A stretch of DNA of 32,000 bases from Aciduliprofundum boonei T469. GTDB taxonomy: Archaea; Thermoplasmatota; Thermoplasmata; Thermoplasmatales; Aciduliprofundaceae. Where the stretch lies: the NCBI RefSeq assembly GCF_000025665.1, contig NC_013926.1:510001-542000 (forward strand), in the 5' to 3' direction. The notes under the pieces were generated by a model. The model was not told where the DNA came from. It searched no databases and was given only the letters and a program-made list of their open reading frames with translations. Position numbers and translations under genes: made by a program. Position 1 is the first letter of the stretch. Each line of letters opens with the position of its first letter. This document shows positions 8,256 through 28,980 of this stretch, piece after piece.

Positions 8256-9116
8256 GTGAATTGCATAATATGTGGGCGGAAATCTGAGCGTCCCGTTTGT
8301 GAGGAATGCACCCATAAAATTATGGAAGAGTATCCATTTTTGCTGAGGAAGAGTTTTATTGCGCCAAATAAAATTTTTGATCTTGAGGATGCGATTGAAA
8401 GGGGAATAATAACCGATGAGAATCTTGCTACTCTCAACGATATGGCAAGAAGAGGACTGAAGGGAGAGAATGTGGATTTTGAAATTTTAACCAGGGCGGC
8501 ATTGCTCTTTCATCGTAGATATTCCTTTTACTTAGAGAATTTTGAAATTAGTCCAGATTATTATCTCTCTCTTGCAGAATTATTCGCTGAAAGGGTTGAG
8601 GGAGAAGCTGGCATGTTTTTAAGGTACAAAATTTTGAAAGAAAAAGGCAATTTTAAAGGGGCTTTAAAATTAATTGATTCTCTCTCAAGAAATGGTAATA
8701 AAGAGTATATGCTTGAAAAGGCGGCTCTTTTGCTTGAAATGGGGGAGAAGGATGCAGCCCAGAAATTGTATATGGATATTTTGGATGATGTAAGTTCTTG
8801 GGAGCATTTTGCAGACACACTTTACGATTTGGCAGAGTATGAGAGTGCAGCTGAGGCGTATATGTATGTGACAGAATTGAATCCTACAGAGAGAGCGTAT
8901 TACAAAATAGCAAGTTCTCTAGTAAAGCTTGGAAAGCACAAGGACGCAATTGAGTATTTGCAAAAGGCAATAAGCATAAACAGATACCATCTCGACTCTT
9001 ACATTCTTCTTTACCGCATATATGGTGAGCTGGATATGCCAGAGGAGAGAAAGAAAATAGCAACGAGGATGAAAAGAGCAGGATTTGATGCAGAGCTCTT
9101 GGGGGTGGAGCAATGA
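8256..9116 (+). CDS. N-terminal zinc-ribbon plus TPR-repeat protein
   Basis: A GTG start gives MNCIICGRKSERPVCEEC (CxxC-x7-CxxC). The C-terminal half has TPR-like repeats (AEAYMYVTELNP..., AIEYLQKAISINR). The 3' end overlaps the next gene by 4 nt (ATGA). Confidence 0.65.
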   Translation: MNCIICGRKSERPVCEECTHKIMEEYPFLLRKSFIAPNKIFDLEDAIERGIITDENLATLNDMARRGLKGENVDFEILTRAALLFHRRYSFYLENFEISPDYYLSLAELFAERVEGEAGMFLRYKILKEKGNFKGALKLIDSLSRNGNKEYMLEKAALLLEMGEKDAAQKLYMDILDDVSSWEHFADTLYDLAEYESAAEAYMYVTELNPTERAYYKIASSLVKLGKHKDAIEYLQKAISINRYHLDSYILLYRIYGELDMPEERKKIATRMKRAGFDAELLGVEQ

Positions 9117-10903
9117 TTGAAGCGGTGGAGAAGATGAGTATGGAAGAATTCGTACATCTATGCAATCGCCTTGTATCCGAGATGGGATTCAAGATAAGAA
9201 AGAGCGTTTATAGGGAGAATATTGCCGTTTTTGATGCTTATATGCCAATTCCGGGTAAGAGTTTGCACTATGTAATAATATTTCTGCGCAAGCCCAAGGT
9301 TACGAAGGATGAGATACTTGAGCTCATTGATGTTGAGAGTGTTGAGATCAAATGGATGCTCATTACCACGGGAGAATTTGAAAAAGAGGATTTGGGAGAT
9401 GATATAACTCTCATGGATGGCAAGGATTTTGAGAGATTGCTCGAAGAATTCGGTCTGAAGGAAGAATTTACTCGTTTAGAAAGGGGCAAAGAAGCTAGGG
9501 AAGGCAGATATCTTCCCAGTGCAGGAGAGTTAGAATCAATGCTTCAATGGGCTAGAGAATTCTTAAACGAGGAGAATTACGAGAAGGCAATGGAGTATGT
9601 GGATAAAGCCCTAAAGGTAAAGTCCACTCCTGAGGGCATGAAGATAAAGGCAAGAATATTGCAAAAGATTGGAAAATATGAGGAGGCAATAAGCGTAATC
9701 ACGAAAATTCTCGAAGAGAATGTTAAGGATGATGAGGCCTGGTTCATATTTGGAGAGATACTTGAGGATATGGGCGATTTGGATGAGGCAGAGCAAGCGT
9801 ATGGACAATGTGTGCATTTCAATCGCCTCAATGTGTCTTGCTGGATAAACCGTGGTAATGTACTTCTATCTCAAAAGAAATATCAGGAAGCGTTGATGTG
9901 CTATGATAAAGCCCTTGCGTTAAATGAAAACCTGCCTGCCATATGGAACAACAGGGGAGTGGCTCTCAAGTATCTTGGCAAGTATGACGAGGCTCTAAAA
10001 AGCTATAACACTGCATTGCAGTTTGATTCAAAATTTGCAGATGCTCATCTCAACAAAGCGTACCTATATTTTGATTTAAAGAAGTACGAAGAGGCAAGAA
10101 ATGCCTTGGCGGGTTATCTTCGCTTAAAGGAGGATGCTCGGGGCTATTTGCTCCTTGCAAACATATTCGCAAAGAGAAATATGAAGAAAGGTGCCATAGA
10201 GGCTGTTAAGAAGGCACTTGAGCTTGAGCCGGGAAATCAGGAGGCAAGGGAACTTTTAGACAGGCTTGAGGGAAGGAGCAGAGAGCTAAGGGATTATGAG
10301 GAAATAAAGAAAATTTTAAAAGAAGAAATTGAAAAAATGAATGTAAGAGAGGAAAATGCTGTTAAAAAAATTAAAAGTGCAAGGGAGAATTTAGAGAGGG
10401 GAAATGTTGCGAGGGCACTCAGGGAAATCATTGAAGTCAGAGAGCATGCACATTCTCAAAATGTTGCTGAAATCAAAGAGGCACTCTATAGGAATACACA
10501 AAGATTATTGGAACTGGCAAATATGAATGTTGAAAATTTAGGGGAGTTGGAGCCCAAAGAGCTAAACGCTTTGGGTTTGGAAGCGATGAAGCGTGTGGTT
10601 TTATGCTCAAAAGAAGAAGAAAAGAATGTAGAAGAGTACCCGAGAGGATATGCACATCTTCTCTATGAGGAGAAGAAATGGAATGAGCTTAAGAAATTAA
10701 ACAATGAAATTGCAGAAAATTCTCTTGGATTGAGGTATTTCAAAGCTAGGAGATACAAGAATGCAGAAGAGTACTTTAAAAATGCATTTTTCAAATCTCC
10801 TGATTTCTATGAGGCAGAGTTAAATCTTGCATACACATATCTGAAGAACGGGAAAGAAAGGAAGGCCAAGGCACTTTTAAAGCATCTTGGGCTGGAAATG
10901 TAA
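9113..10903 (+). CDS. Mrr-like (restriction-endonuclease fold) N-terminal domain fused to a long TPR array
   Basis: Residues 1-115 follow the Mrr_cat pattern: MSMEEFVHLCNRLVSEMGF...VFDAY...VIIFLRK...LITTGEF...LMDGKDFERLLEEFG. At least 6 canonical TPRs follow (e.g. AWFIFGEILEDMGDLDEAEQAY, AIWNNRGVALKYLGKYDEALKSY). The usual (E/Q)xK appears as FLRK. Confidence 0.65.
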   Translation: MIEAVEKMSMEEFVHLCNRLVSEMGFKIRKSVYRENIAVFDAYMPIPGKSLHYVIIFLRKPKVTKDEILELIDVESVEIKWMLITTGEFEKEDLGDDITLMDGKDFERLLEEFGLKEEFTRLERGKEAREGRYLPSAGELESMLQWAREFLNEENYEKAMEYVDKALKVKSTPEGMKIKARILQKIGKYEEAISVITKILEENVKDDEAWFIFGEILEDMGDLDEAEQAYGQCVHFNRLNVSCWINRGNVLLSQKKYQEALMCYDKALALNENLPAIWNNRGVALKYLGKYDEALKSYNTALQFDSKFADAHLNKAYLYFDLKKYEEARNALAGYLRLKEDARGYLLLANIFAKRNMKKGAIEAVKKALELEPGNQEARELLDRLEGRSRELRDYEEIKKILKEEIEKMNVREENAVKKIKSARENLERGNVARALREIIEVREHAHSQNVAEIKEALYRNTQRLLELANMNVENLGELEPKELNALGLEAMKRVVLCSKEEEKNVEEYPRGYAHLLYEEKKWNELKKLNNEIAENSLGLRYFKARRYKNAEEYFKNAFFKSPDFYEAELNLAYTYLKNGKERKAKALLKHLGLEM

Positions 10904-14152: not shown

Positions 14153-14668
14153 TTAGAAGTTTATAACTCCCCCAGAAGATACACCATTGTAACCATTTAT
14201 TGAGAATAAAACTTTATCTCCACTCTGGAACGGCGGAGGTGTGATATTATCTGAAGGATTATCATCCACAACATAAACTATCAGTGTATCTCCATTACTA
14301 AATTTGCCATCATCATCGTTATCTATTAACTTTGCCTCATAGTGCCATTTGCCATTTGAAGTTTTATTGCTCCAAATGAAGTTATTTAAATAATTTAAAT
14401 GCAATAATTTACCACTTTTATCTATAGTTATTTTCACATTTTCCATGTATGTGCTTTGTGGAGAACTAAGTGAGATAGAGAAATATAATGTGGTTTTGTT
14501 GGATTTGGTAGATTGGAATGTTAGATAACCATGAAGCTGGTCTACATTATATGGTGTAGATAAGTATCCACCCACTACAAATAGATAAAGAGAAGTAACT
14601 AAAACTACTGTAATAGCAATCATAAGAATTTCAGCGATTACCGGGCTAACACCTTCTTCTCTTCTCAT
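14153..14668 (-). CDS. archaeal type IV pilin-like protein (class III signal peptide)
   Basis: The N-terminus MRREEGVSPVIAEILMIAITVVLV has a short charged leader, then G|VSPVI and a hydrophobic helix. This is typical of archaeal Pilin_N/DUF1628 proteins. An AT-rich promoter-like stretch lies upstream. Confidence 0.8.
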   Translation of the reverse strand: MRREEGVSPVIAEILMIAITVVLVTSLYLFVVGGYLSTPYNVDQLHGYLTFQSTKSNKTTLYFSISLSSPQSTYMENVKITIDKSGKLLHLNYLNNFIWSNKTSNGKWHYEAKLIDNDDDGKFSNGDTLIVYVVDDNPSDNITPPPFQSGDKVLFSINGYNGVSSGGVINF

Positions 14669-14712: not shown

Positions 14713-15189
14713 TTAAGGTATGGTTATCTGCTGGCTACCAGAGTATCCAGAAATGGCAAGTGATATTGTAGCTCCATTTAGGTTGTGGCCATATATGTAT
14801 ATGACATCTCCTGTAGAAAGCTTGCCATTTCCATCATAGTCTATTACTTTAACATTATAGGTAACTGAATTTATTGTGATTGTGCCTGTACCATCTGCAG
14901 ACAGATACTTCCCAGTAGGATAAGTGCCATTTATCCCTATAATAACCTTTGTAAAGTCAGCACTACTGGGTGAACTCATTGCCACAGATATGTTTACATA
15001 TCCAGCAGTTGGATTTGATGTTTGTACATCGTAAGTCAATGAGGCAGTGAGATTAGGCTGTGTACTGCCTCCCATGTAGCCAGATACGAGTAGCCAAACT
15101 GTCGCTGCAAGCACTACTGTTATAGCGACCATCAAAATGGTAGCTATAACCGGGCTTACGCCCTCTTCCTTCTTATATATCCTCTTCAT
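14713..15189 (-). CDS. archaeal type IV pilin-like protein (class III signal peptide), paralog of 14153-14668
   Basis: MKRIYKKEEGVSPVIATILMVAITVVLAA. The start at ATG 15189 is preceded by AGGAGGACTTAAA, a strong Shine-Dalgarno sequence. The 9 upstream codons in the track ORF are therefore unlikely to be translated. It shares a C-terminal D-x-D/N-G-K-x-S-x-GD block with its neighbour. Confidence 0.85.
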   Translation of the reverse strand: MKRIYKKEEGVSPVIATILMVAITVVLAATVWLLVSGYMGGSTQPNLTASLTYDVQTSNPTAGYVNISVAMSSPSSADFTKVIIGINGTYPTGKYLSADGTGTITINSVTYNVKVIDYDGNGKLSTGDVIYIYGHNLNGATISLAISGYSGSQQITIP

Positions 15190-15384
15190 TTTAAGTCCTC
15201 CTGGGTTTGAACCCATGTTCTATTAAAGGTGCTCCGTATTTAAAGGTTTTGGGGCAAAAATCGAATTATTCGGATTTTGCAAGAAAAACCATGACATGAG
15301 AAAGCATGTTTTTTATATGGATATTTTTAAATTAACCTCCTTGCTGCGAAAATGTTTAAATTCTCCATTTGGATAACCTTAACT

Positions 15385-20986: not shown

Positions 20987-21650
20987 TTTCTATTTTATCT
21001 TTTTTTCCAACTATTACTTTGTTTGCCAAGCCCACGAATAGCCCTACCTCTACAACTCCCGGTATCTCATCGATCCTTCTTTCCAGCTTTGCAGGCTCGT
21101 CAATTCTCTCAAATTTACAATCCACGATATAATTGCCGTTGTCGGTTATGTACGCTTCCCCATTTTTCACCCTAAGCAAGGGTTTGCAGCCCAGGGTTGA
21201 TAGAACATTCATTGTTCTCTTGTATCCGAATTTTACAATCTCTATTGGCAAGGGAAAATCTCCCAAAACGCTTTTTACTTTGCTCTCGTCCACCACGATG
21301 ATTTCATATTTTGAAGCGTGAGCAATCATCTTCTCCCTGAGAAGAGCGCCACCCCCTCCCTTTATCAAATTCAAATTTCTATCAACTTCATCAGCTCCAT
21401 CTATTGTCAAATCAATGACTTGGTAATCGTTGATGCTTCCCAATTTTATTCCCATCTCCTTTGCAAGTTTTTCTGTTGCAATTGATGTGGGTATCCCTAT
21501 TATATCCAAGCCATCTTTTACAAGCTCCCCGAGTTTGAGAATGGTGTATTTTACAGTAGAGCCAGTTCCTAAGCCCACAACCATGCCGTCTTTTATGTAT
21601 TTCACAGCTTTCTCTCCCGCCTTCCTTTTCAATTCTTCTTTTAGCTCCAT
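20958..21650 (-). CDS. rpiA: ribose-5-phosphate isomerase A
   Basis: The classic RpiA motifs are present: GLGTGSTV, DGADEVD and KGGGGALLREK. Confidence 0.95.
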   Translation of the reverse strand: MELKEELKRKAGEKAVKYIKDGMVVGLGTGSTVKYTILKLGELVKDGLDIIGIPTSIATEKLAKEMGIKLGSINDYQVIDLTIDGADEVDRNLNLIKGGGGALLREKMIAHASKYEIIVVDESKVKSVLGDFPLPIEIVKFGYKRTMNVLSTLGCKPLLRVKNGEAYITDNGNYIVDCKFERIDEPAKLERRIDEIPGVVEVGLFVGLANKVIVGKKDKIEIMTSSGDSL

Positions 21651-22318
21651 ACTCTTTCCTCCAAAATTGTTCTTAAAGGAGATATGTAAATACCCAATGT
21701 GAAGTTTTCTATGCCAACAATTCTAATTGTGAGTTCGTACTTGTAAGTACCTATGACTTCAACTCTATATCCTCTTCTCTCCACTCTGCTTATAAAATTC
21801 TTTTTGAATTCTATACCTATGGCATCGTACTTTTCAATTTTATCATAAAAATTTTCATTTAGGCATATTAACCTTTTTGAGCCCTTTATCTCTTCTATGA
21901 GTTCAAGAGTGCGCAGCTCGTCCACAACTCTGTAAGCAGTTGAGCGACTTACATGCCTGTAAAGAAAGGGCATATCCCTGCATCTTTCCTTGAGAGAATT
22001 TACAATGAGCCAACCACTCTTTTTGTTTATCAATGCGAATAGAGGTACATCTTCATCCATAACAAGCCCAGATGGATAAAACAGCCTTTTCTTATGCTCT
22101 CTCTTCTCTATAAATCCATTTTCTATCAATTTTCTCAGGTGCCATTCAACATCTTGCACATCATAGTTTAAGGTTTTTGCAATAGCGGATGATGTCTGAC
22201 AAGGTGCCCTTGTTAGTTCCCTGAATACATCTCTCCTATGCTTGCTTGCAAATATATGGAAGCCCCTTTCTTTTTCTTCCTCCCTTATCAGATTTTTAAG
22301 CTGGGAGGCGAGTTTCAA
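21641..22318 (-). CDS. tandem winged-helix DNA-binding protein
   Basis: There are two wHTH-like units. The first is RDVFRELTRAPCQTSSAIAKTLNYDVQDVEWHLRKLIENGFIEKRE. The second is RHVSRSTAYRVVDELRTLELIEEIKG. The TTG start overlaps the KaiC-like stop (TTGA), and the stop overlaps the rpiA start by 10 nt. Confidence 0.6.
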   Translation of the reverse strand: MKLASQLKNLIREEEKERGFHIFASKHRRDVFRELTRAPCQTSSAIAKTLNYDVQDVEWHLRKLIENGFIEKREHKKRLFYPSGLVMDEDVPLFALINKKSGWLIVNSLKERCRDMPFLYRHVSRSTAYRVVDELRTLELIEEIKGSKRLICLNENFYDKIEKYDAIGIEFKKNFISRVERRGYRVEVIGTYKYELTIRIVGIENFTLGIYISPLRTILEERVWS

Positions 22319-23184
22319 GAGAATTCCTCCACCAACATGTCAGCGAGTTCATCTAAATTTATGTCTTCAAGGTCTTCATCGTTTAATTTTGATATGAGCT
22401 TTCTTACTCTTTCTTGCACGATGGGGGATGCGTTCTTGAGTTTCTCCATAACTTTCTTTTCAAGCTCTTCTACATTGAGCCTTGTATGCTTCATATGATA
22501 ACTTCCGCGCATAACCACGAGTCCTAAACCTCGGACGATTTTGTAAGGAAATATTTTCTCGCTATGCCTGCTTCCCCTCATCTTTATGATTTTTAAATCT
22601 CTGCGGGTATTATCCTCCACATACCTGTAGCGCAGATGAATTATAGAATCTGCCAGATACATGGGAATTGCTGTTTCTGGGGCAGATAGATTTGCAGGGC
22701 CATGCTCCTCCAAGGTAGCCACTACAGTTCCTATTTTTCTCATCTCTTTGAGCATAAACCCCAACAGCTCTCTTTGTTCATACCTTGATGGTGTAGCCCA
22801 TACCACAGGTGTTAAAGGGTCTATGGCAATTCTGGTATTAGCCCCCAGCCAGGTTGATACGAAATCGGGGAGCTCTTTCCTTATGAATGCTTTGAATTCC
22901 TTCCCAGAGGCATCCACAAAAATTAATTTTTCCTCTTCCACAAAGTATGTGATATCATCCCACCCCATGTTTAAAGCGTCTCTAATTATCTGCTCTTTAT
23001 TCTCATCCAGGCTTATGAATATGCAATCTTGACCGTCCAGCAAACCCCTCCTTATGAACTGAGTGGCAAAGGTGGTTTTGCCCGCACCTGTTGAGCCTAT
23101 TATTACTGTTGAAGACTTGTTCATCAATCCCCCATCAAGAGGTGCGTCAAGTCCTAAGATTCCCGTCTTTATCTTTTCATCCAT
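22315..23184 (-). CDS. single-domain KaiC/RecA-like ATPase with acidic C-terminal extension
   Basis: From Met74 of the track ORF the sequence reads MDEKIKTGILGLDAPLDGGL...IIGSTGAGKTTFATQF (Walker A). RIAIDPLT is Walker B-like and TLEEHG is present. The 73 upstream codons run into the IS element and look like non-coding read-through. Confidence 0.85.
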   Translation of the reverse strand: MDEKIKTGILGLDAPLDGGLMNKSSTVIIGSTGAGKTTFATQFIRRGLLDGQDCIFISLDENKEQIIRDALNMGWDDITYFVEEEKLIFVDASGKEFKAFIRKELPDFVSTWLGANTRIAIDPLTPVVWATPSRYEQRELLGFMLKEMRKIGTVVATLEEHGPANLSAPETAIPMYLADSIIHLRYRYVEDNTRRDLKIIKMRGSRHSEKIFPYKIVRGLGLVVMRGSYHMKHTRLNVEELEKKVMEKLKNASPIVQERVRKLISKLNDEDLEDINLDELADMLVEEFS

Positions 23185-23227: not shown

Positions 23228-24165
23228 GGGATAAGTTGAATTCCTCGAAAAACATGAAAAAAGAAGAATAAAAATAAGGAAGGATTAGACATAGAGATCA
23301 TAGGCAAGAACTTTGAAGAGCAGGAGTTTAGAAGCACCAGAGAAAGAATGGGAAAATATGTAATCTCCAACAACTCTTTTGAAAGAGTGGAAGACTGATT
23401 CAATTACATTTCTATGCGAGTACTTCTTTTTCCAGTCAGGTGATTTGCTCTTTTCTAACAATCTCCTTCGCAATCCTCTTCTTGCTTTATTACGGATTGC
23501 TATGTATGGAGTTCCTCCTTTATTCAGAACAAATCGTATGTTACGTAGAGAATCATAGCCCTTATCTGCATACACTTCTTTTACTCTCTCTTCCTCCAAA
23601 AGAGGAATGAGGTACGGTGAATCGTTAGTGTGCCATTTTGTAACTATTGCATTGGTAATGAGCTTCCTCTCAATATCCACAGCAGCATGCAATTTCAATC
23701 CTTCTCTTATTTTTCCTACTTCTCCGATTCGCTGTGTGTAGTAGTATGAACGGTAATAAATTTGAATACCTGTGGAATCCACTGCAAATTTATTGGGTAT
23801 TCCCATTATTTTCACTATTTCTCTAAGCACAATGCGAATCCATCGTTCTGGTATTCTTCTCAACTCTCTTGAAATTGTGCTTTTATGGGGGATTTTCTTC
23901 AATCTCATTACCCTCTTTATCTTTCTCATTTCTCGCACAATCTGGAGCATTCTTTCTATACTTCCCACATACTGTGTCAGCACTATCAGCATCATGTGCT
24001 GGTGCAGAGTGTAATCTTTCCTAGAGTACTTGCTCCAGTAAAGAGGAATATTTGCTCTCTTTAGAGCTTTCATCCCCATTTTCACAACCTTGTACAGGTC
24101 TAATTTCCTGCTCATCCTTTATTTATATCCCCTATTTTATTTTTATGTGGGGTTGCAACTCACCC
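23228..24165 (-). mobile_element. IS4/IS5-superfamily insertion sequence (about 0.94 kb, single transposase)
   Basis: A DDE transposase ORF is flanked by imperfect terminal inverted repeats. The left end is GGGATAAGTTGAATTCC. The reverse complement of the right end is GGGTGAGTTGCAACCCC. Direct repeats TAAAAGT(GG) flank the element. Boundaries are uncertain by about 2 nt. Confidence 0.75.
23285..24115 (-). CDS. DDE transposase, IS4/IS5 type (DDE_Tnp_1-like)
   Basis: D1 lies in FAVDSTG and D2 in VYADKGYDS. The YREK signature Y-x2-R-x3-E-x6-K is seen in YSHRNVIESVFHSFK. The reading frame is intact. Confidence 0.9.
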   Translation of the reverse strand: MSRKLDLYKVVKMGMKALKRANIPLYWSKYSRKDYTLHQHMMLIVLTQYVGSIERMLQIVREMRKIKRVMRLKKIPHKSTISRELRRIPERWIRIVLREIVKIMGIPNKFAVDSTGIQIYYRSYYYTQRIGEVGKIREGLKLHAAVDIERKLITNAIVTKWHTNDSPYLIPLLEEERVKEVYADKGYDSLRNIRFVLNKGGTPYIAIRNKARRGLRRRLLEKSKSPDWKKKYSHRNVIESVFHSFKRVVGDYIFSHSFSGASKLLLFKVLAYDLYV

Positions 24166-24190: not shown

Positions 24191-24208
24191 GGAGTGCATT
24201 GGGTTTTT

Positions 24209-25357
24209 ATGAAAGTTGTTGTAGGAATTGTTGCGATCCTTGCTTTAATTCTTCTCATCCCTGCTGTGCATTCTTCGCAGCCATCACAGGGCTGGGGATA
24301 CAAATGGAATTTTAAGAATGGAGAGATAGAAAATGCGAGTTTTGTGGGAAGGATGAGTGGAAATAGGGTTATGGGATTGTACATCGAGCCTGCAATTTAT
24401 GAGAATGGAATTTACAATATGTCCTATAAGGGCTCTTACTATGCCTATGGATTTATGAATGGTGTATGGAAAGGTAAAAATGCTACAGTATATGGAGAGT
24501 ATCATAACTCCACTATCCAGCTCTATTGGGTTAACTGGGATGGTTATATTCTAATGAAGAAGGTGAACATGGAGATAAATGGAAAGAATTACAGCTTTTA
24601 TGGAGTTGTAAAGCAATATATCCATCTATATACCCCAGAGCCAAGGGATGAGTATCTGAATGTAAGCTCTTTTATTCCTAAACCTTTTCAAATGTGGGAT
24701 AATAGTACGAGCGAGATCAAAGCAACATACGATATGAAAATGTTCATCTCTTATAATTCCTCTTTGCCCTATATTCTCAACGAAGATGGAAATTTAAGTT
24801 ATTATATGAAAGCAAAGTACTGGGGAGATGTAAGAGCGAGCATTAATGGTTATGCTACTGCTAGAGTTAGTGTGAAATGGATTAATAATACGGTCACTAT
24901 CCATAGAGATCTCACAGGGAATTTCAATAAAGAATTCAAAGGCATTATCAATTTTAAGGCGCATATTTTCAGGCATGGAAACTATGTGCAGAGAGTTGAT
25001 ATATTGGAAAACATACCATTTTCGTTTGCAGGGATACCATATCTGCCTTATAAAAAGGCCAATTCTTCAGAGGAGCTTGGTTGGTGGCTGCGTGGTTCTC
25101 TCTTGGATTTAATTGCGTTCAATAATGATGCAAAGCTTGAAAATGGATTTTACACGCAAATTACCTTGAACAGGCTCTTTGTGAGATATACATCGGAGCC
25201 AGCTAAAGAAGTTGAGATTGATAGTATGATGAAAGAAGCACCGCAGTTGTATGGAGAGTACAGAATGCAGAGTGTGGCAATTTATGCGAGCACAATAGTT
25301 GCAGTATCCATCATTGTGACTATTCTTGCGGTGAGTTTTTCCAAGAGAAAGAATTAG
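24209..25357 (+). CDS. hypothetical secreted, C-terminally anchored protein rich in N-glycosylation sequons
   Basis: MKVVVGIVAILALILLIPAVHS is a signal peptide. The C-terminal VAIYASTIVAVSIIVTILAVSFSKRKN is a TM anchor. I count 11 NxS/T sequons by eye. I recognised no family. Confidence 0.6.
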   Translation: MKVVVGIVAILALILLIPAVHSSQPSQGWGYKWNFKNGEIENASFVGRMSGNRVMGLYIEPAIYENGIYNMSYKGSYYAYGFMNGVWKGKNATVYGEYHNSTIQLYWVNWDGYILMKKVNMEINGKNYSFYGVVKQYIHLYTPEPRDEYLNVSSFIPKPFQMWDNSTSEIKATYDMKMFISYNSSLPYILNEDGNLSYYMKAKYWGDVRASINGYATARVSVKWINNTVTIHRDLTGNFNKEFKGIINFKAHIFRHGNYVQRVDILENIPFSFAGIPYLPYKKANSSEELGWWLRGSLLDLIAFNNDAKLENGFYTQITLNRLFVRYTSEPAKEVEIDSMMKEAPQLYGEYRMQSVAIYASTIVAVSIIVTILAVSFSKRKN

Positions 25358-26202
25358 AGTTTTTCTAAAATCTCATTATCTTTCATTTTATCTAGCTCAC
25401 ATATAGAATATCCTTTTTCAATCAGGGAGAAAATGCAGAGAGAGCCAATAGCGTATCCCTTTCTCTCAGGGCCATAGAACTCAAGTATGGTGTCTTGAGT
25501 TAATTTTTCATCCTTCCTGTTTTTGAGTAGTTCTATATATTCATTTTCTCTCTCCATATATTCTTGCCATTTATCCTTCTCAAAAGGGATATATTTCCAG
25601 AGACTCTCCTTCTTTAAATCATTGTTAAACCAAGCCGAAAATGTTATTCCCAAACCTTCCAGTATGGTTAAATTAGCAAGATTCATTTGGTAAGGAGAAT
25701 CTATACCTTCTGGCAAAAGAACAGTATGCAAGCGCACAATATGGGCATACTCATGGGGTAAGAGCACACTCAAATTCTCTGTATTCATAAAGGAATCATC
25801 TCCACCGATACCGAAAAATATGAAAACTCCTAAATTTCTAGAGTATTGAGTTATAACAAAATCAAAGGGTGCAGGAAGGAAATACACAGAAAAATTATTG
25901 TCTATGGGACACATATTTTCCACTCTTTGAAGAATATTATGTATTTCGCCACTCTTATTTTTATATACCTCCACTATTTTCAAAATTTCAGATAGCTCCT
26001 TTTTTGTATTTTTGAAAAATTGTAATGCATCGGTGTTGAGCATTTTTCCTATTGAGTTTTGAAAGAGTTCCTCATGCTTTTTATATACGCACATCCAGGG
26101 CTCTTCTGAATTCAAGCAATCCTCCGATATATCTATATCAATTATGAGTGTGTGCATAAAATGGAATGATGAGAGTTGTATAATTAATTTGCCATTATGC
26201 AA
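25354..26202 (-). CDS. putative HExxH zinc-dependent protease (DUF2268-like)
   Basis: LLPHEYAHIVRL contains an HExxH motif. A downstream ILEGLGITFSAWF resembles the EGLA..F helix of DUF2268. The start may instead be Met16 (26157). The gene is divergent from the KaiC-like operon. Confidence 0.5.
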   Translation of the reverse strand: MHNGKLIIQLSSFHFMHTLIIDIDISEDCLNSEEPWMCVYKKHEELFQNSIGKMLNTDALQFFKNTKKELSEILKIVEVYKNKSGEIHNILQRVENMCPIDNNFSVYFLPAPFDFVITQYSRNLGVFIFFGIGGDDSFMNTENLSVLLPHEYAHIVRLHTVLLPEGIDSPYQMNLANLTILEGLGITFSAWFNNDLKKESLWKYIPFEKDKWQEYMERENEYIELLKNRKDEKLTQDTILEFYGPERKGYAIGSLCIFSLIEKGYSICELDKMKDNEILEKL

Positions 26203-26235
26203 AGGTTTAAATTTTAAATTGTTATGGTTTGACAG

Positions 26236-27054
26236 ATGAGAATACCTACATCTGTGGCTGCATTTGACGAAATTGTTAAAGGCGGGGTACCTGCCGGCTC
26301 GGTTGTAATTCTTGCTGGAGAACCGGGGTCTGGCAATGTTGAATTTGCATACACTTCAGCTGCAAAATTATCCATAGCGAGAAAATACCAGGAAAGGAGA
26401 AAATTTATGGTTATAGAGGCGGAGGATATTTACATTCCTGAGGGCACTCTGTACATATCCTTTTCCAAGAGCGAGGATGAGATATTTCGTGCAATAGATT
26501 TGACATTTAACGAAGACCTCGGTGAAGCATTCAGAGATTCTCTAAAAATTAAAGATTTATCCGTAGAGTATTTTCGTAACAGCATAGTGCCTAGGAGATG
26601 GATTACGGAGAGCACGGGGGAATTTTTGAAGAGGAAAGGAGACATACTGAAAGAGTTCGTGAATGTGCTTGACTCGTACTCGAATGGCAGAATAGTTATT
26701 GTGGACTCTTTAACTGATTTAGTCACCTCCACTCGCATAAATTTTGAAAATTTAATTGATGTGATAAAAGGGTTGAGGAGGGCAGCTAAGAAATGGAACA
26801 CGGTAATTTATCTCCTTTTAACTCTAGGCGTAGTGGACAAGATGAAGGAAAACTTGCTTTTTGATTCAGTTGACGGGGTATTTGTATTCGAGTGGCATGG
26901 TTCTGAAAGTTACTCAAAGAGGTATCGCTATATGTATGTGCTAAAATTTGTGGGGCTTATGGCTCATCTTGAGGAGGAGAGGATTGCTAGGTTTAATACC
27001 ACTTTAAACAGACGCAGTGGGTTTGTGGTGGTGAATACTGAAAAGATAGGGTGA
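26236..27054 (+). CDS. KaiC/RecA-like protein with degenerate Walker A (predicted non-catalytic)
   Basis: The N-terminal FDEIVKGGVPAGSVVILAGEPGSGNVEF aligns with the KaiC-like GLDxxLxGGxPxGxxxxxxGxxGxGKT. The invariant K-T is N-V (codons aat gtt at 26335-26340). Walker B-like RIVIVDSLTDL is retained. Confidence 0.75.
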   Translation: MRIPTSVAAFDEIVKGGVPAGSVVILAGEPGSGNVEFAYTSAAKLSIARKYQERRKFMVIEAEDIYIPEGTLYISFSKSEDEIFRAIDLTFNEDLGEAFRDSLKIKDLSVEYFRNSIVPRRWITESTGEFLKRKGDILKEFVNVLDSYSNGRIVIVDSLTDLVTSTRINFENLIDVIKGLRRAAKKWNTVIYLLLTLGVVDKMKENLLFDSVDGVFVFEWHGSESYSKRYRYMYVLKFVGLMAHLEEERIARFNTTLNRRSGFVVVNTEKIG

Positions 27055-27743
27055 TGAATATGAGAATAAAAACTGGAATTGAGGGATTGGACGATATGCT
27101 CAACGGTGGCATTCCCAAAGGGCATACCGTGGCGGTTATAGGTGCATTTGGCACTGGAAAAACCACATTTGCTATGCAATTCATCTGGGAAGGCCTAATT
27201 AATGGAGAAAGGTGCATATTTTTGAGCTTGGAAGAAGACGAGGATAGTGTTGTAGAAAGTGCAAGTAAATTTGGGTGGGATTATTCCAAGTACTTGGGCT
27301 CTCAGCTCCAGCTTTTAAAACTTGATCCTGAGGATGCAAAGAGTAGCGTTGAGAGATTGGAGAGCGATATACCCGAGCTCATAAAAGAGTTTGAGGCAAC
27401 GAGGATTGCCGTGGATTCTATAAGTTTGATAACGATGATGTACGATAGCATTGATGAGAAGAGAAAGGTAGTTTTCAAGCTTGCAAAGAGCATAAAGGAG
27501 AGTGGTGCAACTGCGGTTTTTACAGCAGAAGTGGACCCAAAAAATCCCAAGGTTAGCAGGGATGGAATTGTGGAGTATGTTGTTGACGGGGTAATCCTTC
27601 TATCTTTTCTTGAAGAGAACAATGTTCTAAAGCTCACAATTAGAGTTTTGAAGATGAGAAGAACTCAGCATTCGAGAGAGGTAAAATTGTACGAGATAGG
27701 AGAGGGAGGAATAAATGTTCTTGCCCAAGCGGATGTATTTTGA
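27054..27743 (+). CDS. single-domain KaiC/RecA-like ATPase (intact motifs)
   Basis: IKTGIEGLDDMLNGGIPKGHTVAVIGAFGTGKTTFAMQF is Walker A (27141-27164). RIAVDSIS is Walker B and TAEV is present. The ATG at 27054 overlaps the upstream TGA (TGATG). GTG 27051 and ATG 27060 are alternative starts. Confidence 0.85.
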   Translation: MNMRIKTGIEGLDDMLNGGIPKGHTVAVIGAFGTGKTTFAMQFIWEGLINGERCIFLSLEEDEDSVVESASKFGWDYSKYLGSQLQLLKLDPEDAKSSVERLESDIPELIKEFEATRIAVDSISLITMMYDSIDEKRKVVFKLAKSIKESGATAVFTAEVDPKNPKVSRDGIVEYVVDGVILLSFLEENNVLKLTIRVLKMRRTQHSREVKLYEIGEGGINVLAQADVF

Positions 27744-27746
27744 GGT

Positions 27747-28094
27747 GTGCCTATGGATGAAAAAGAATTGAAGAGCATAGCTGCCATTTATTTCGGTTTC
27801 ACACCATCCACAAAGGTTCCTAAAAATGTGAAAATTGAAATTCTTGAACCAGAATATGGAGGAAGCGAAGAGGCAAAGAAGATAAAGATAAAATGGGAAA
27901 ACCACATAGGTTCTGAGAGCAGGGTAGCGAGAATAACTCCCTTAGATATAATGCATTACTTGGAGATGAAGAATACGAAGAATAATTACAGCAAGGCAGT
28001 TGCCATTCTATTGGATTTGGCTGCTTTAAACAATTTGCCAGTAGTTAAGGTGGGAGATGAGTATTTGCTGATAAATCCAAAGTACAAGGGGTGA
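27747..28094 (+). CDS. hypothetical 115-aa protein, third gene of the KaiC-like operon
   Basis: The ORF starts 3 nt after the KaiC-like stop, at GTG 27747 or ATG 27753. I recognised no motif. The C-terminal half (YSKAVAILLDLAALNNLPVVKVGDEYLLI) is compatible with a winged-helix-like unit, but that is unverified. Confidence 0.5.
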   Translation: MPMDEKELKSIAAIYFGFTPSTKVPKNVKIEILEPEYGGSEEAKKIKIKWENHIGSESRVARITPLDIMHYLEMKNTKNNYSKAVAILLDLAALNNLPVVKVGDEYLLINPKYKG

Positions 28095-28372
28095 GAGAAA
28101 TTAAAGATAAGGAAAATGTTTTAAAAAATATCGTTGAAAGCATGAAACTCGATTTGTATGTTGAGAGCAAAATTCCTGAGATGCATGTATGCTTTTTCTG
28201 TGGTAGAATTGGATACAAAAACTTACCTATGAAGAAGATTGGCAATAAATGGATATGCATAGATTGCTTGAGGGAGTTGAAAGAGGCACTGGATTCTTTG
28301 GAAGAATGGGAGCAAGAAATAAGTTTAAGAGAAGAGATAAAGAAACAGATAGAAAAAGAATTCAAAGATTAG
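28091..28372 (+). CDS. hypothetical small zinc-ribbon plus coiled-coil protein
   Basis: CFFCGR...(x19)...CIDC forms a CxxC/CxxC pair. A charged helical tail follows (EEWEQEISLREEIKKQIEKEFKD). GTG 28091 overlaps the upstream TGA (GTGA). ATG 28141 is an alternative start. Confidence 0.5.
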   Translation: MREIKDKENVLKNIVESMKLDLYVESKIPEMHVCFFCGRIGYKNLPMKKIGNKWICIDCLRELKEALDSLEEWEQEISLREEIKKQIEKEFKD

Positions 28373-28980
28373 ACAGCGAAAGATTCACCCTTTGCGAAAT
28401 TATTTTTTATGTAATCAATTATTATGCTTCTATCTCCTTTGAGATGGGACTCGTACCATTTCGGTATGATCTTGAGGAGGATGTCCCTTATTTTATCAAT
28501 GCTTGCCTTACTAACGCTCTCATCGTAGAGTATGTACTGGCTATAAATTCTCTTCAATCCAGAGTACTTGTAATACTCTTCTCCTTCAAAGAATTCAAAG
28601 ATCATCTTTATTCTCTCCCCCTCTTCTGTTGCATAATATGTGACCTTTATAGAATCCCCTGTTCTGTTTTGGTCTCTTGTTAAATCCACAAGTGCTATCT
28701 CAGTTACAGATGAGAAATCAAAATCCTCTCTAAGCTCCCATTTATCTGGGAACACTATGAATCTGCCCCATTCAGAATGTGGGGGATCCATCCTAAAATG
28801 AACATTTATCTTGTTGAATTGGAGCCATATTCTCCAGAAATCTTCAATTAAGTTCATATTTAACTCTTTTTTCTTCTCTCTTTCCGTGGAAATTGTCTTT
28901 ATGACCTCTTCCCTCTTCTTCTCCAGTTCGCTTTCAAGCTTCTCATACCAGTTTTCAACCTTCTCTTCTTTCTTTGCCAT
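28369..28980 (-). CDS. hypothetical protein with N-terminal coiled-coil
   Basis: The 203-aa ORF opens with MAKKEEKVENWYEKLESELEKKREEVIKTISTEREKKKE, followed by a mixed alpha/beta-looking region. It converges on the Zn-ribbon gene and overlaps its 3' end by 4 nt. I recognised no family. Confidence 0.55.
   Translation of the reverse strand: MAKKEEKVENWYEKLESELEKKREEVIKTISTEREKKKELNMNLIEDFWRIWLQFNKINVHFRMDPPHSEWGRFIVFPDKWELREDFDFSSVTEIALVDLTRDQNRTGDSIKVTYYATEEGERIKMIFEFFEGEEYYKYSGLKRIYSQYILYDESVSKASIDKIRDILLKIIPKWYESHLKGDRSIIIDYIKNNFAKGESFAV

Follow-up and report, generated by a model that had tools for sequence, protein, structure and literature searches.

This work concerns two adjacent genes in a 32,000-nucleotide stretch of the genome of the archaeon Aciduliprofundum boonei T469 (contig NC_013926.1, positions 510,001 to 542,000; hereafter the window), which encode KaiC-like proteins on the same strand. 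We refer to the upstream gene and its product as pKaiC and to the downstream one as KaiC2; their coordinates, together with those of the motifs and neighbouring genes discussed below, are collected in Table 1. The initial annotation, made from the sequence alone, had proposed that pKaiC is an inactive paralogue coupled to an intact partner, and had read N-V in pKaiC at the place of the P-loop Lys-Thr/Ser. The codons bear this reading out: aat (26335-26337) and gtt (26338-26340) specify N34-V35, where KaiC2 has K34-T35.

Catalytic motifs and fold of the two proteins

The N-terminal sequence of pKaiC is MRIPTSVAAFDEIVKGGVPAGSVVILAGEPGSGNVEF. The Walker A sequence of the KaiC/RecA superfamily, GxxxxGK[T/S], is present in KaiC2 (GAFGTGKT) and absent from pKaiC (GEPGSGNV); since KaiC2 reads GAFGTGKTTF at residues 28-37, both loops carry the same residue numbers. 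In order to compare the remaining motifs, we aligned the profiles of the two families with hhalign, which related them with a probability of 91% at an identity of ~21%. In this alignment S77-K78 of pKaiC (FSKS) falls on E58-E59 of KaiC2 (SLEE), so that the paired catalytic Glu residues that follow strand 2 are found in KaiC2 and are missing from pKaiC. The Walker B signature (hhhhD) is present in both proteins, as VIVD157-S158 in pKaiC and RIAVD119-S in KaiC2. The K-x-R-G finger motif reads K-M-R-R in KaiC2 as against K-F-V-G in pKaiC. The absence from pKaiC of the catalytic Glu pair and of the finger Arg, with the Lys (K237) kept, had gone unremarked earlier. Without the Lys and Thr of its P-loop and with neither catalytic Glu left, pKaiC should be incapable of catalysis. 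We also considered K44, which lies in a TSAAK motif ten residues downstream, as a substitute for the P-loop Lys; this is unlikely, as the residue lies turns down the helix and is unconserved in the distant branch of the family described below.

The profile-profile alignment also clarified the difference in length between the two proteins. A single insertion of 40-50 residues had been suggested for pKaiC; the size was about right, as there are 45 extra residues, but these are distributed over at least two insertions. The first comprises ~16-19 residues past the P-loop helix (TSAAKLSIARKYQERR), and the second comprises ~20 residues around D107-W122. The D107 to W122 stretch is the best-conserved segment specific to pKaiC.

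pKaiC barely passes the threshold of the Pfam KaiC family (PF06745; 34.7 bits against a cut-off of 26.6, residues 3-237), and at the sequence level it matches solved structures over its first 40 residues only. An AlphaFold2 (AF2) model built from a 112-sequence alignment had a mean predicted local distance difference test score (pLDDT) of 88.9 and a predicted template-modelling score (pTM) of 0.90. When this model was compared with the PDB using Foldseek, the best matches were Sso2452, KaiC CI and PH0284, with E values of 1e-13 to 1e-12 and target-normalised template-modelling (TM) scores of 0.72-0.75. By both profile and fold, Sso2452 ranks first among the solved relatives of pKaiC, with KaiC CI, PH0284 and other KaiC chains scoring nearly equally, and in the profile alignment the S-K of pKaiC lies under the catalytic E-E of Sso2452. 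On the basis of the predicted model we are confident that pKaiC adopts the KaiC/RecA fold, in agreement with the KaiC-like framework and the Walker-B-like motif recognized at the outset.

KaiC2 is in all respects a conventional member of its family. It scores 210.6 bits with Pfam KaiC and 261.1 bits with NCBIfam TIGR03880 (KaiC_arch_3; cut-off 249.45), and it matches solved KaiC at an E value of 4e-63, aligning with both CI and CII, compared with only ~1e-5 for RadA, RadB and RecA. The GAFGTGKT and RIAVDS motifs already attributed to the downstream protein are present, and SLEE can be added to them. The start of KaiC2 is most likely the ATG at 27060, 5 nt past the TGA of pKaiC (27052-27054); this ATG is also the called gene start on an identical public contig, and the GTG at 27051 is the start of the longest open reading frame (ORF) only. 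With the start at 27060 the two genes are tightly spaced and do not overlap; the apparent start-stop overlap arises only when the longest ORF is taken as the gene. A Shine-Dalgarno-like sequence, AGGGTGAT, spans the last codons and the stop of pKaiC. Upstream, ~24 nt ahead of the ATG of pKaiC, the A/T-rich sequence TTTAAATTTTAAAT is a possible archaeal TATA box; transcription directed by it would give an mRNA with no leader or a very short one. We also considered whether the pair might belong to a defence system. This was rejected, since PADLOC returned a weak match of KaiC2 to mad8, confined to the P-loop region, and no match for pKaiC.

Table 1. Features of the pKaiC/KaiC2 locus and its downstream neighbours (window coordinates; nt, nucleotides; aa, amino acids; dN/dS, ratio of non-synonymous to synonymous substitution rates)
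Feature	Coordinates	Strand	Basis or remarks
Possible TATA box, A/T-rich, ~24 nt before the pKaiC ATG	26206..26219	+	Read from the sequence; putative
pKaiC ORF, 272 aa, KaiC/RecA-fold protein, predicted to be catalytically dead	26236..27054	+	ORF, Pfam KaiC, AF2, Foldseek, dN/dS
pKaiC degenerate P-loop, G28-F37 (GEPGSGNVEF)	26317..26346	+	Glycines kept; Lys to N34, Thr to V35; E36 near-invariant
pKaiC insertion 1 relative to KaiC2, T40-R56, conserved TSAAK motif, lengthens the P-loop helix	26353..26403	+	hhalign, family alignment, model helix 34-50
pKaiC S77-K78, at the site of the catalytic Glu-Glu pair	26464..26469	+	hhalign; alignment to Sso2452 TTEES; ortholog census
pKaiC family signature and insertion 2 (D107..S109..Y112-F113..P119..W122, then variable loop)	26554..26634	+	Invariant columns, hhalign gap region
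pKaiC retained Walker B, V153-S158 (VIVDS; D157-S158), followed by invariant LTDL	26692..26709	+	Sequence, family alignment
pKaiC K237-F-V-G, remnant of the KaiC K-x-R-G trans-acting finger, Lys kept, Arg replaced	26944..26955	+	hhalign
Shine-Dalgarno-like sequence at the 3' end of pKaiC (stop codon included), 5 nt upstream of the KaiC2 ATG	27048..27055	+	Sequence; same layout across loci
KaiC2, 227 aa, intact single-domain KaiC ATPase	27060..27743	+	Pfam, NCBIfam, motifs
KaiC2 Walker A, G28-T35 (GAFGTGKT)	27141-27164	+	
KaiC2 catalytic E58-E59 (SLEE)	27231-27236	+	
KaiC2 Walker B, D119 (RIAVDS)	27414-27416	+	
KaiC2 K198-x-R200	27651-27659	+	
p113, small conserved protein, W..HIG..AR..P.D motif, 9 nt past KaiC2	27753..28094	+	DHVE2/Aciduliprofundum lineage only
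p93, small zinc ribbon (CxxC...CxxC then EWEQE), overlaps the p113 stop	28091..28372	+	DHVE2 lineage only
p203, convergent neighbour, Thermoplasmatota-specific family	28369..28980	-	Adjoins the pair in 31/80 loci

Conservation of the inactivated sites and of the pairing

The initial annotation had pointed to ortholog alignment as the means of separating a selected substitution from a decaying gene or a sequencing error. We therefore assembled a census of 158 pKaiC orthologs, made up of 80 genome loci from Thermoplasmatota, 75 metagenome loci from a distant branch and 3 loci looked up individually, and aligned every pKaiC and partner to the family profiles; 153 partner sequences were recovered. 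Not one of the 158 pKaiC orthologs has the P-loop Lys. Two residues further on, at the position of E36, 150 carry Glu or Asp and the other eight have alignment gaps, while the former Glu-Glu pair is replaced by [S/T][R/K] in nearly all of them. Of the 158, 157 retain the Walker B Asp-Ser (D157-S158) and 154 retain K237. The finger Arg divides the family, being found in 0/80 sequences of the Thermoplasmatota set as against 49/78 of the distant set. Nearly every one of the 153 KaiC2 partners retains the Lys, the Thr/Ser, the acidic Glu-Glu pair, the Asp and the K-x-R. A wider collection contained 262 pKaiC homologs of ~270-306 residues, with the Lys in none of 120 among the matches listed, and the 112-sequence alignment has 36 invariant columns.

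Both genes are under strong purifying selection of comparable degree. Measured against the closest relative, pKaiC has a dN/dS of 0.031 and KaiC2 one of 0.021. In more distant comparisons, where synonymous sites are saturated, non-synonymous distances (pN) were again similar (~0.17-0.21 for pKaiC and ~0.16-0.22 for KaiC2). The identical pKaiC protein occurs on five independent public contigs, including GCA_000151085.1, and the nearest loci are labelled Aciduliprofundum or DHVE2. These data bear directly on the idea that pKaiC is a decaying pseudogene, or that the Asn is a sequencing error, for which the missing Lys and nothing more can be cited. With five identical contigs, a Lys that is absent from all orthologs, intact reading frames, a dN/dS of 0.03 and a confidently predicted fold, this idea is refuted and hardly credible, as is the supposition that orthologs carry a normal GKT. 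The proposal that pKaiC is a pseudo-enzyme, by comparison, is strongly supported: loss of the Lys is universal, the catalytic Glu residues are lost as well, and selection is as strong as on the partner.

To look further afield, we searched 1.8 billion representative proteins with the family profile and obtained 1256 relatives of pKaiC, 211 of them at E<=1e-10. Among the matches listed, a P-loop without Lys is the rule in 150 representative relatives. Sequence comparison thus strongly supports the view that the loss of the Lys is ancient and universal in the pKaiC family. A set of very distant relatives (P0207, P0219, P0205, P0213, P0215, P0224, P0226 and P0257) keeps the P-loop Lys, for example as GESGAGKSEF; in these proteins the Walker B Asp is changed to His, Tyr or Phe and the catalytic Glu pair is absent, which suggests that they were inactivated by a separate route. 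The cluster of P0207 has members labelled Hadesarchaea, and no KaiC gene follows P0207 (locus L086).

Pairing with KaiC2 is almost without exception. In 80/80 Thermoplasmatota genome loci, which cover DHVE2, other Thermoplasmata, Methanomassiliicoccales and Sysuiplasma, a KaiC2 ortholog lies directly downstream of pKaiC on the same strand, and the pKaiC frame is intact in all. The distance from the pKaiC stop to the best-supported start of the partner is -4 to +8 nt in 80/82 cases, and across loci the last codons of pKaiC (…E-K/R-I/V-G-stop) encode a Shine-Dalgarno-like AGGGTGA. In the distant branch the partner is immediately downstream in 57 of the 58 loci with room for it. There TIGR03880 is the best-matching family for the partners, with scores of 164-248 bits (below the cut-off given above for KaiC2). 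Distant-branch cluster members include proteins of Methanoperedens and Methanocorpusculum, in which the pair is also adjacent. The occurrence of the pairing both in Thermoplasmatota and in the distant branch indicates that the dead/active dyad is old and spans several euryarchaeal orders, and conservation over such a range implies that pKaiC is functional as a partner protein and not a gene in decay.

The pairing also bears on the possibility that the two proteins are merely expressed together, with pKaiC acting outside any complex as an independent scaffold or adaptor, for instance by serving KaiC2, or some other partner, as a decoy or as a phospho-acceptor substrate. Such independence would suit the weak similarity of the two proteins (~21% identity), the large conserved insertions specific to pKaiC and the lack of the finger Arg in the window's clade. 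Near-absolute co-occurrence and spacing would, however, be hard to maintain across order- and class-level divergence without direct functional dependence, and a phospho-acceptor role would itself need transient binding. We consider this possibility to be improbable.

Genomic context and a model for the pair

In the distant branch the pair is linked to genes of type IV pilus-like systems. A divergent operon for T2SSE (PilB/VirB11-type) and T2SSF (TadC) proteins lies within 1.5 kb of the pair in 30 of the 46 distant loci with at least 1.5 kb of upstream sequence, and in a few further distant loci a T2SSE-T2SSF operon is found downstream of the pair. Loci in which the pair adjoins genes for a PilB/VirB11-type ATPase and a TadC-type membrane protein fall in the series L087-L164 (e.g. 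L087, 5780-8870, and L088, 1-3203).

Taken with the motif and pairing data, it seems reasonably likely that pKaiC is an ancient, selected pseudo-ATPase subunit, that its obligate partner is a TIGR03880-type KaiC and that the two form a mixed, KaiC-like oligomer of dead and active subunits. A heteromer of this kind is consistent with the adjacency of the genes, the intact motifs of KaiC2 and the interface Lys retained in pKaiC. One transcript and coupled translation would supply roughly equal amounts of the two proteins, which may then assemble, most likely into a ring of alternating subunits. ATP hydrolysis or autophosphorylation would be confined to sites built on the KaiC2 P-loop, and pKaiC probably does not bind nucleotide in the normal way. 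The near-invariant Glu two residues past the lost P-loop Lys, together with the invariant Arg/Lys at the former catalytic Glu site, suggests a charge-swapped salt bridge that would plug the pocket. K237 at the interface and the two conserved, family-specific insertions could in turn provide a docking or regulatory surface. Retention of K-x-R in 49 of the 78 distant pKaiC sequences is what would be expected if the dead subunit completes the active site of a neighbour in the same ring. Our best guess is that the module is a nucleotide-driven regulatory switch of the ArlH/KaiC kind, as is thought for other archaeal KaiC-like proteins. The ancestral client of the switch was probably an assembly ATPase of type IV pilus-like systems together with the TadC platform, by analogy with the service of ArlH to ArlI and ArlJ, and the genomic link to pili would have been lost in the Thermoplasmatota branch to which the window belongs.

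Several observations weigh against this model. The absence of the finger Arg throughout the window's clade (0/80) would make pKaiC a poor trans-activator of KaiC2 sites; with only the finger Lys left, pKaiC may instead damp the activity of its neighbour, or the rings may stack in the manner of KaiC CI and CII. No fusion of pKaiC with KaiC was found among the 150 representative relatives listed, and the longer relatives (P0153, P0160, P0214, P0216 and others) have no second KaiC domain. T2SSE and T2SSF genes are absent within 6 kb of the pair in all 80 Thermoplasmatota loci and are likewise absent from the 32-kb window. Methanomassiliicoccus has been reported to be without secretion ATPases (PMC4858521) while its relatives keep the pKaiC/KaiC2 pair, so that a pilus role cannot be assumed in the window's clade. 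Furthermore, the neighbours in Methanomassiliicoccales are of a housekeeping kind: LonB, a protein resembling nicotinamide mononucleotide (NMN) adenylyltransferase (NMNAT-like), CinA/PncC and RibD_C. A pilus linkage for the window's own clade was accordingly rejected on the absence of T2SSE and T2SSF from its loci and from the window. Two archaeal type IV pilin genes (Pilin_N; 14153-14668 and 14713-15216, both on the minus strand) do lie in the window ~11 kb upstream of the pair, with no assembly ATPase or TadC gene there.

Stacking of the kind just mentioned can be framed as a split version of the KaiC double ring, in which a dead pKaiC homo-hexamer sits on an active KaiC2 homo-hexamer like CI on CII, the gene order dead-active corresponding to CI-CII. 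Both proteins are single KaiC domains, KaiC2 matches CI as well as CII, and the closely coupled genes, in this order, look like a tandem that has not been fused; moreover, loss of the finger Arg in the window's clade would matter less if pKaiC does not sit beside KaiC2 active sites. We nevertheless regard this arrangement as unlikely. The fused, two-domain form that it brings to mind was not seen among the relatives listed, and the K-x-R kept in the dead subunit of the distant branch would be aimed at dead sites, and so purposeless, in an all-dead ring.

The Methanomassiliicoccales loci provide part of the case for a different function. In L036 (1528-8109) and 30-odd similar loci of this type, the order is LonB, an NMNAT-like cytidylyltransferase, CinA/PncC, two small ORFs of no known kind, pKaiC, KaiC2 and RibD_C. 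This placement of CinA ahead of a RecA-superfamily gene is reminiscent of cinA-recA in bacteria, although here it looks like part of nicotinamide adenine dinucleotide (NAD) salvage. One could imagine that the pair is a RadA-paralogue recombination mediator, an archaeal counterpart of the Rad55-Rad57 and Rad51-paralogue complexes, whose degenerate subunit would assist in loading RadA filaments or in remodelling them. Sso2452, the top-ranking solved relative of pKaiC, is described as a RadA paralogue; public labels such as 'RAD55 family ATPase' and 'recombinase RecA' are attached to family members; and in 34 loci of the Methanomassiliicoccales type there is a CinA-domain gene upstream, cinA often preceding recA in bacteria. 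Set against this are the far closer relationship of KaiC2 to KaiC than to RadA, RadB or RecA (E 4e-63 against ~1e-5), the lack of recurring repair or replication genes beside the pair, the presence beside CinA of a gene for an NMN-adenylyltransferase-like protein, as would suit NAD salvage, and the association of the distant branch with pilus ATPases rather than DNA metabolism. A recombination role thus appears to be a poor prospect.

Within the preferred model of a mixed oligomer, a more specific and considerably more speculative version can be drawn, which we think rather unlikely as a whole. Here pKaiC would be a frozen subunit whose pocket, plugged by the charge-swapped pair, mimics one nucleotide state and imposes three-fold asymmetry on the ring, or else it would serve as a phospho-acceptor in trans. 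Both variants would amount to a minimal KaiC timer or switch that consists of two genes and needs neither KaiA nor KaiB, one that ancestrally gated type IV pilus ATPases and was re-targeted in Thermoplasmatota.

The genes next to the pair in the window add further detail. pKaiC, KaiC2, p113 and p93 are co-directional and tightly spaced, and are followed by the convergent p203. p113 has no Pfam or NCBIfam match; p93 has the near-invariant pattern MHVCxxCxRIGYKxLPMK..WICIDCLRELKE..EWEQE. These two small proteins are possible lineage-specific partners of the KaiC pair. Whether p203 belongs to the pKaiC/KaiC2 system is uncertain. Its family has 96 homologs of ~200-215 residues, all from Thermoplasmatota and none with a Pfam domain. 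An AF2 model (pLDDT 88.7) predicts an N-terminal helix of 45 residues, followed by a beta meander and by helices at the C terminus, and the best PDB fold match, at E 0.13, is not significant. As this confident model matched no PDB fold and said nothing on mechanism, p203 was dropped as an informative effector.

Other genes of the window lie upstream of the pair. The divergent upstream neighbour of pKaiC (25354-26202, minus strand) encodes a DUF2268-like predicted zinc protease (25.3 bits). Next to it a 387-residue protein (24194-25357) has no family match; conservation of both is limited to close relatives of Aciduliprofundum. The window has a third KaiC-like gene (22315-23184, minus strand, as called on the public contig; 137 bits with Pfam KaiC), which overlaps a regulator of the HTH_20/TrmB type (21641-22318). 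In this strain an insertion sequence (IS) transposase gene (DDE_Tnp_1; 23285-24115, minus strand) lies between that operon and the pair; it is absent from that place in the related contig L002. Further away, a 596-residue protein (9113-10903, plus strand) has a weak N-terminal match to the Mrr_cat restriction endonuclease domain (E 5.5e-5) followed by a long tetratricopeptide repeat (TPR) array, and is preceded by a second TPR protein (8256-9116).

Comparison with known systems

Inactivated KaiC-like domains of archaea have been described as iKaiC, credited in PMC5847659 to Makarova, Galperin and Koonin (mBio 2017). As presented in PMC5847659, iKaiC domains resemble pKaiC in being archaeal, homologous to KaiC and disrupted in their catalytic motifs, and in occurring alongside intact KaiC paralogues, and a signalling role is proposed. 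pKaiC combines KaiC homology with catalytic motifs whose disruption is conserved in orthologs, and by this measure it is an iKaiC. The iKaiC mentioned in PMC5847659 is, however, a domain fused to receiver domains, whereas pKaiC is a separate gene. Makarova, Koonin and Albers (2016; PMC4858521) described the KaiC families arCOG01172 and arCOG01173 beside VirB11/TadC operons in Methanomicrobia. These resemble the distant branch (Methanoperedens, Methanocorpusculum and the 30/46 metagenome loci), to judge by their description, in having two KaiC-family genes beside a secretion-ATPase/TadC operon; the window's clade differs in having no such operon nearby, and the main text of PMC4858521 never uses the word 'inactivated' and so is not seen to call either member dead.

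At the level of comparative genomics, then, the existence of inactivated archaeal KaiC homologs and the location of KaiC genes beside pilus operons are already published. In the literature outside the mBio 2017 article we found no statement that a stand-alone family is the obligate dead partner of a TIGR03880 KaiC, and no experiments on one. How strict and how old the pairing is, and the charge-swap signature, would merit experiment without surprising a specialist. Archaea have many KaiC-like genes whose roles are mostly unknown, and the two-gene module offers a small, clean system in which to ask whether a dead subunit tunes ATPase or autokinase activity, sets ring asymmetry or docks effectors; the pilus linkage of the distant branch offers a concrete, testable phenotype. 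For annotation, it follows that members named 'recombinase RecA' or 'RAD55 family ATPase' should not be taken as active recombinases.

ArlH (FlaH) is comparable to pKaiC in that it is a single KaiC domain whose catalytic set is impaired, although it binds ATP and has the Walker A Lys. ArlH acts alone and not as half of a dead/active pair. Neither protein is an ArlH by family model, pKaiC scoring 26 and KaiC2 51.5 bits with NF052589 against a cut-off of 215. According to bioRxiv 10.1101/2021.03.19.436134, ArlH is the KaiC-like partner of the motor ATPase ArlI; according to that article and PMC4858521, it works with this type IV pilus-class ATPase and the platform ArlJ, and its oligomerization depends on nucleotide and phosphorylation. 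Co-encoding of this type, with ArlI (T2SSE) and ArlJ (T2SSF), is seen neither in the window nor in the 80 Thermoplasmatota loci, and comparable linkage is present in the distant branch.

Among RecA/KaiC-like proteins, Sso2452 and the archaeal RadA paralogues (aRadC), and the eukaryotic Rad51-paralogue complexes Rad55-Rad57 and Shu, share with the pair the fold and the logic of a degenerate and an active paralogue. Unlike pKaiC, Sso2452 keeps GKT and Glu-Glu, and the pair is without a genomic link to DNA repair.

Cyanobacterial KaiC consists of two domains made 1:1 in one oligomer, as is proposed here for the pair, and KaiC2 shares its Walker A, Glu-Glu, Asp-Ser and K-x-R motifs. There the domains form one chain and both bind ATP; here they are separate polypeptides of which the first is dead. 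KaiC2 scores 122.7 and 150.8 bits with the circadian KaiC models TIGR02655 and NF006799, against cut-offs of 546 and 408, and it lacks their two tandem domains. Pfam scans of the window's other ORFs of at least 90 residues turned up no KaiA or KaiB.

A further parallel to the proposed ring is F1-ATPase, in which catalytic beta and non-catalytic alpha RecA-like subunits alternate and the non-catalytic subunit lends an interface finger to the site of its neighbour. The alpha subunit keeps its P-loop Lys and binds nucleotide. It resembles pKaiC of the distant branch, which keeps K-x-R in a dead subunit, and differs from pKaiC in that the latter has lost the Lys, the Thr, both Glu residues and, in the window's clade, the Arg finger.

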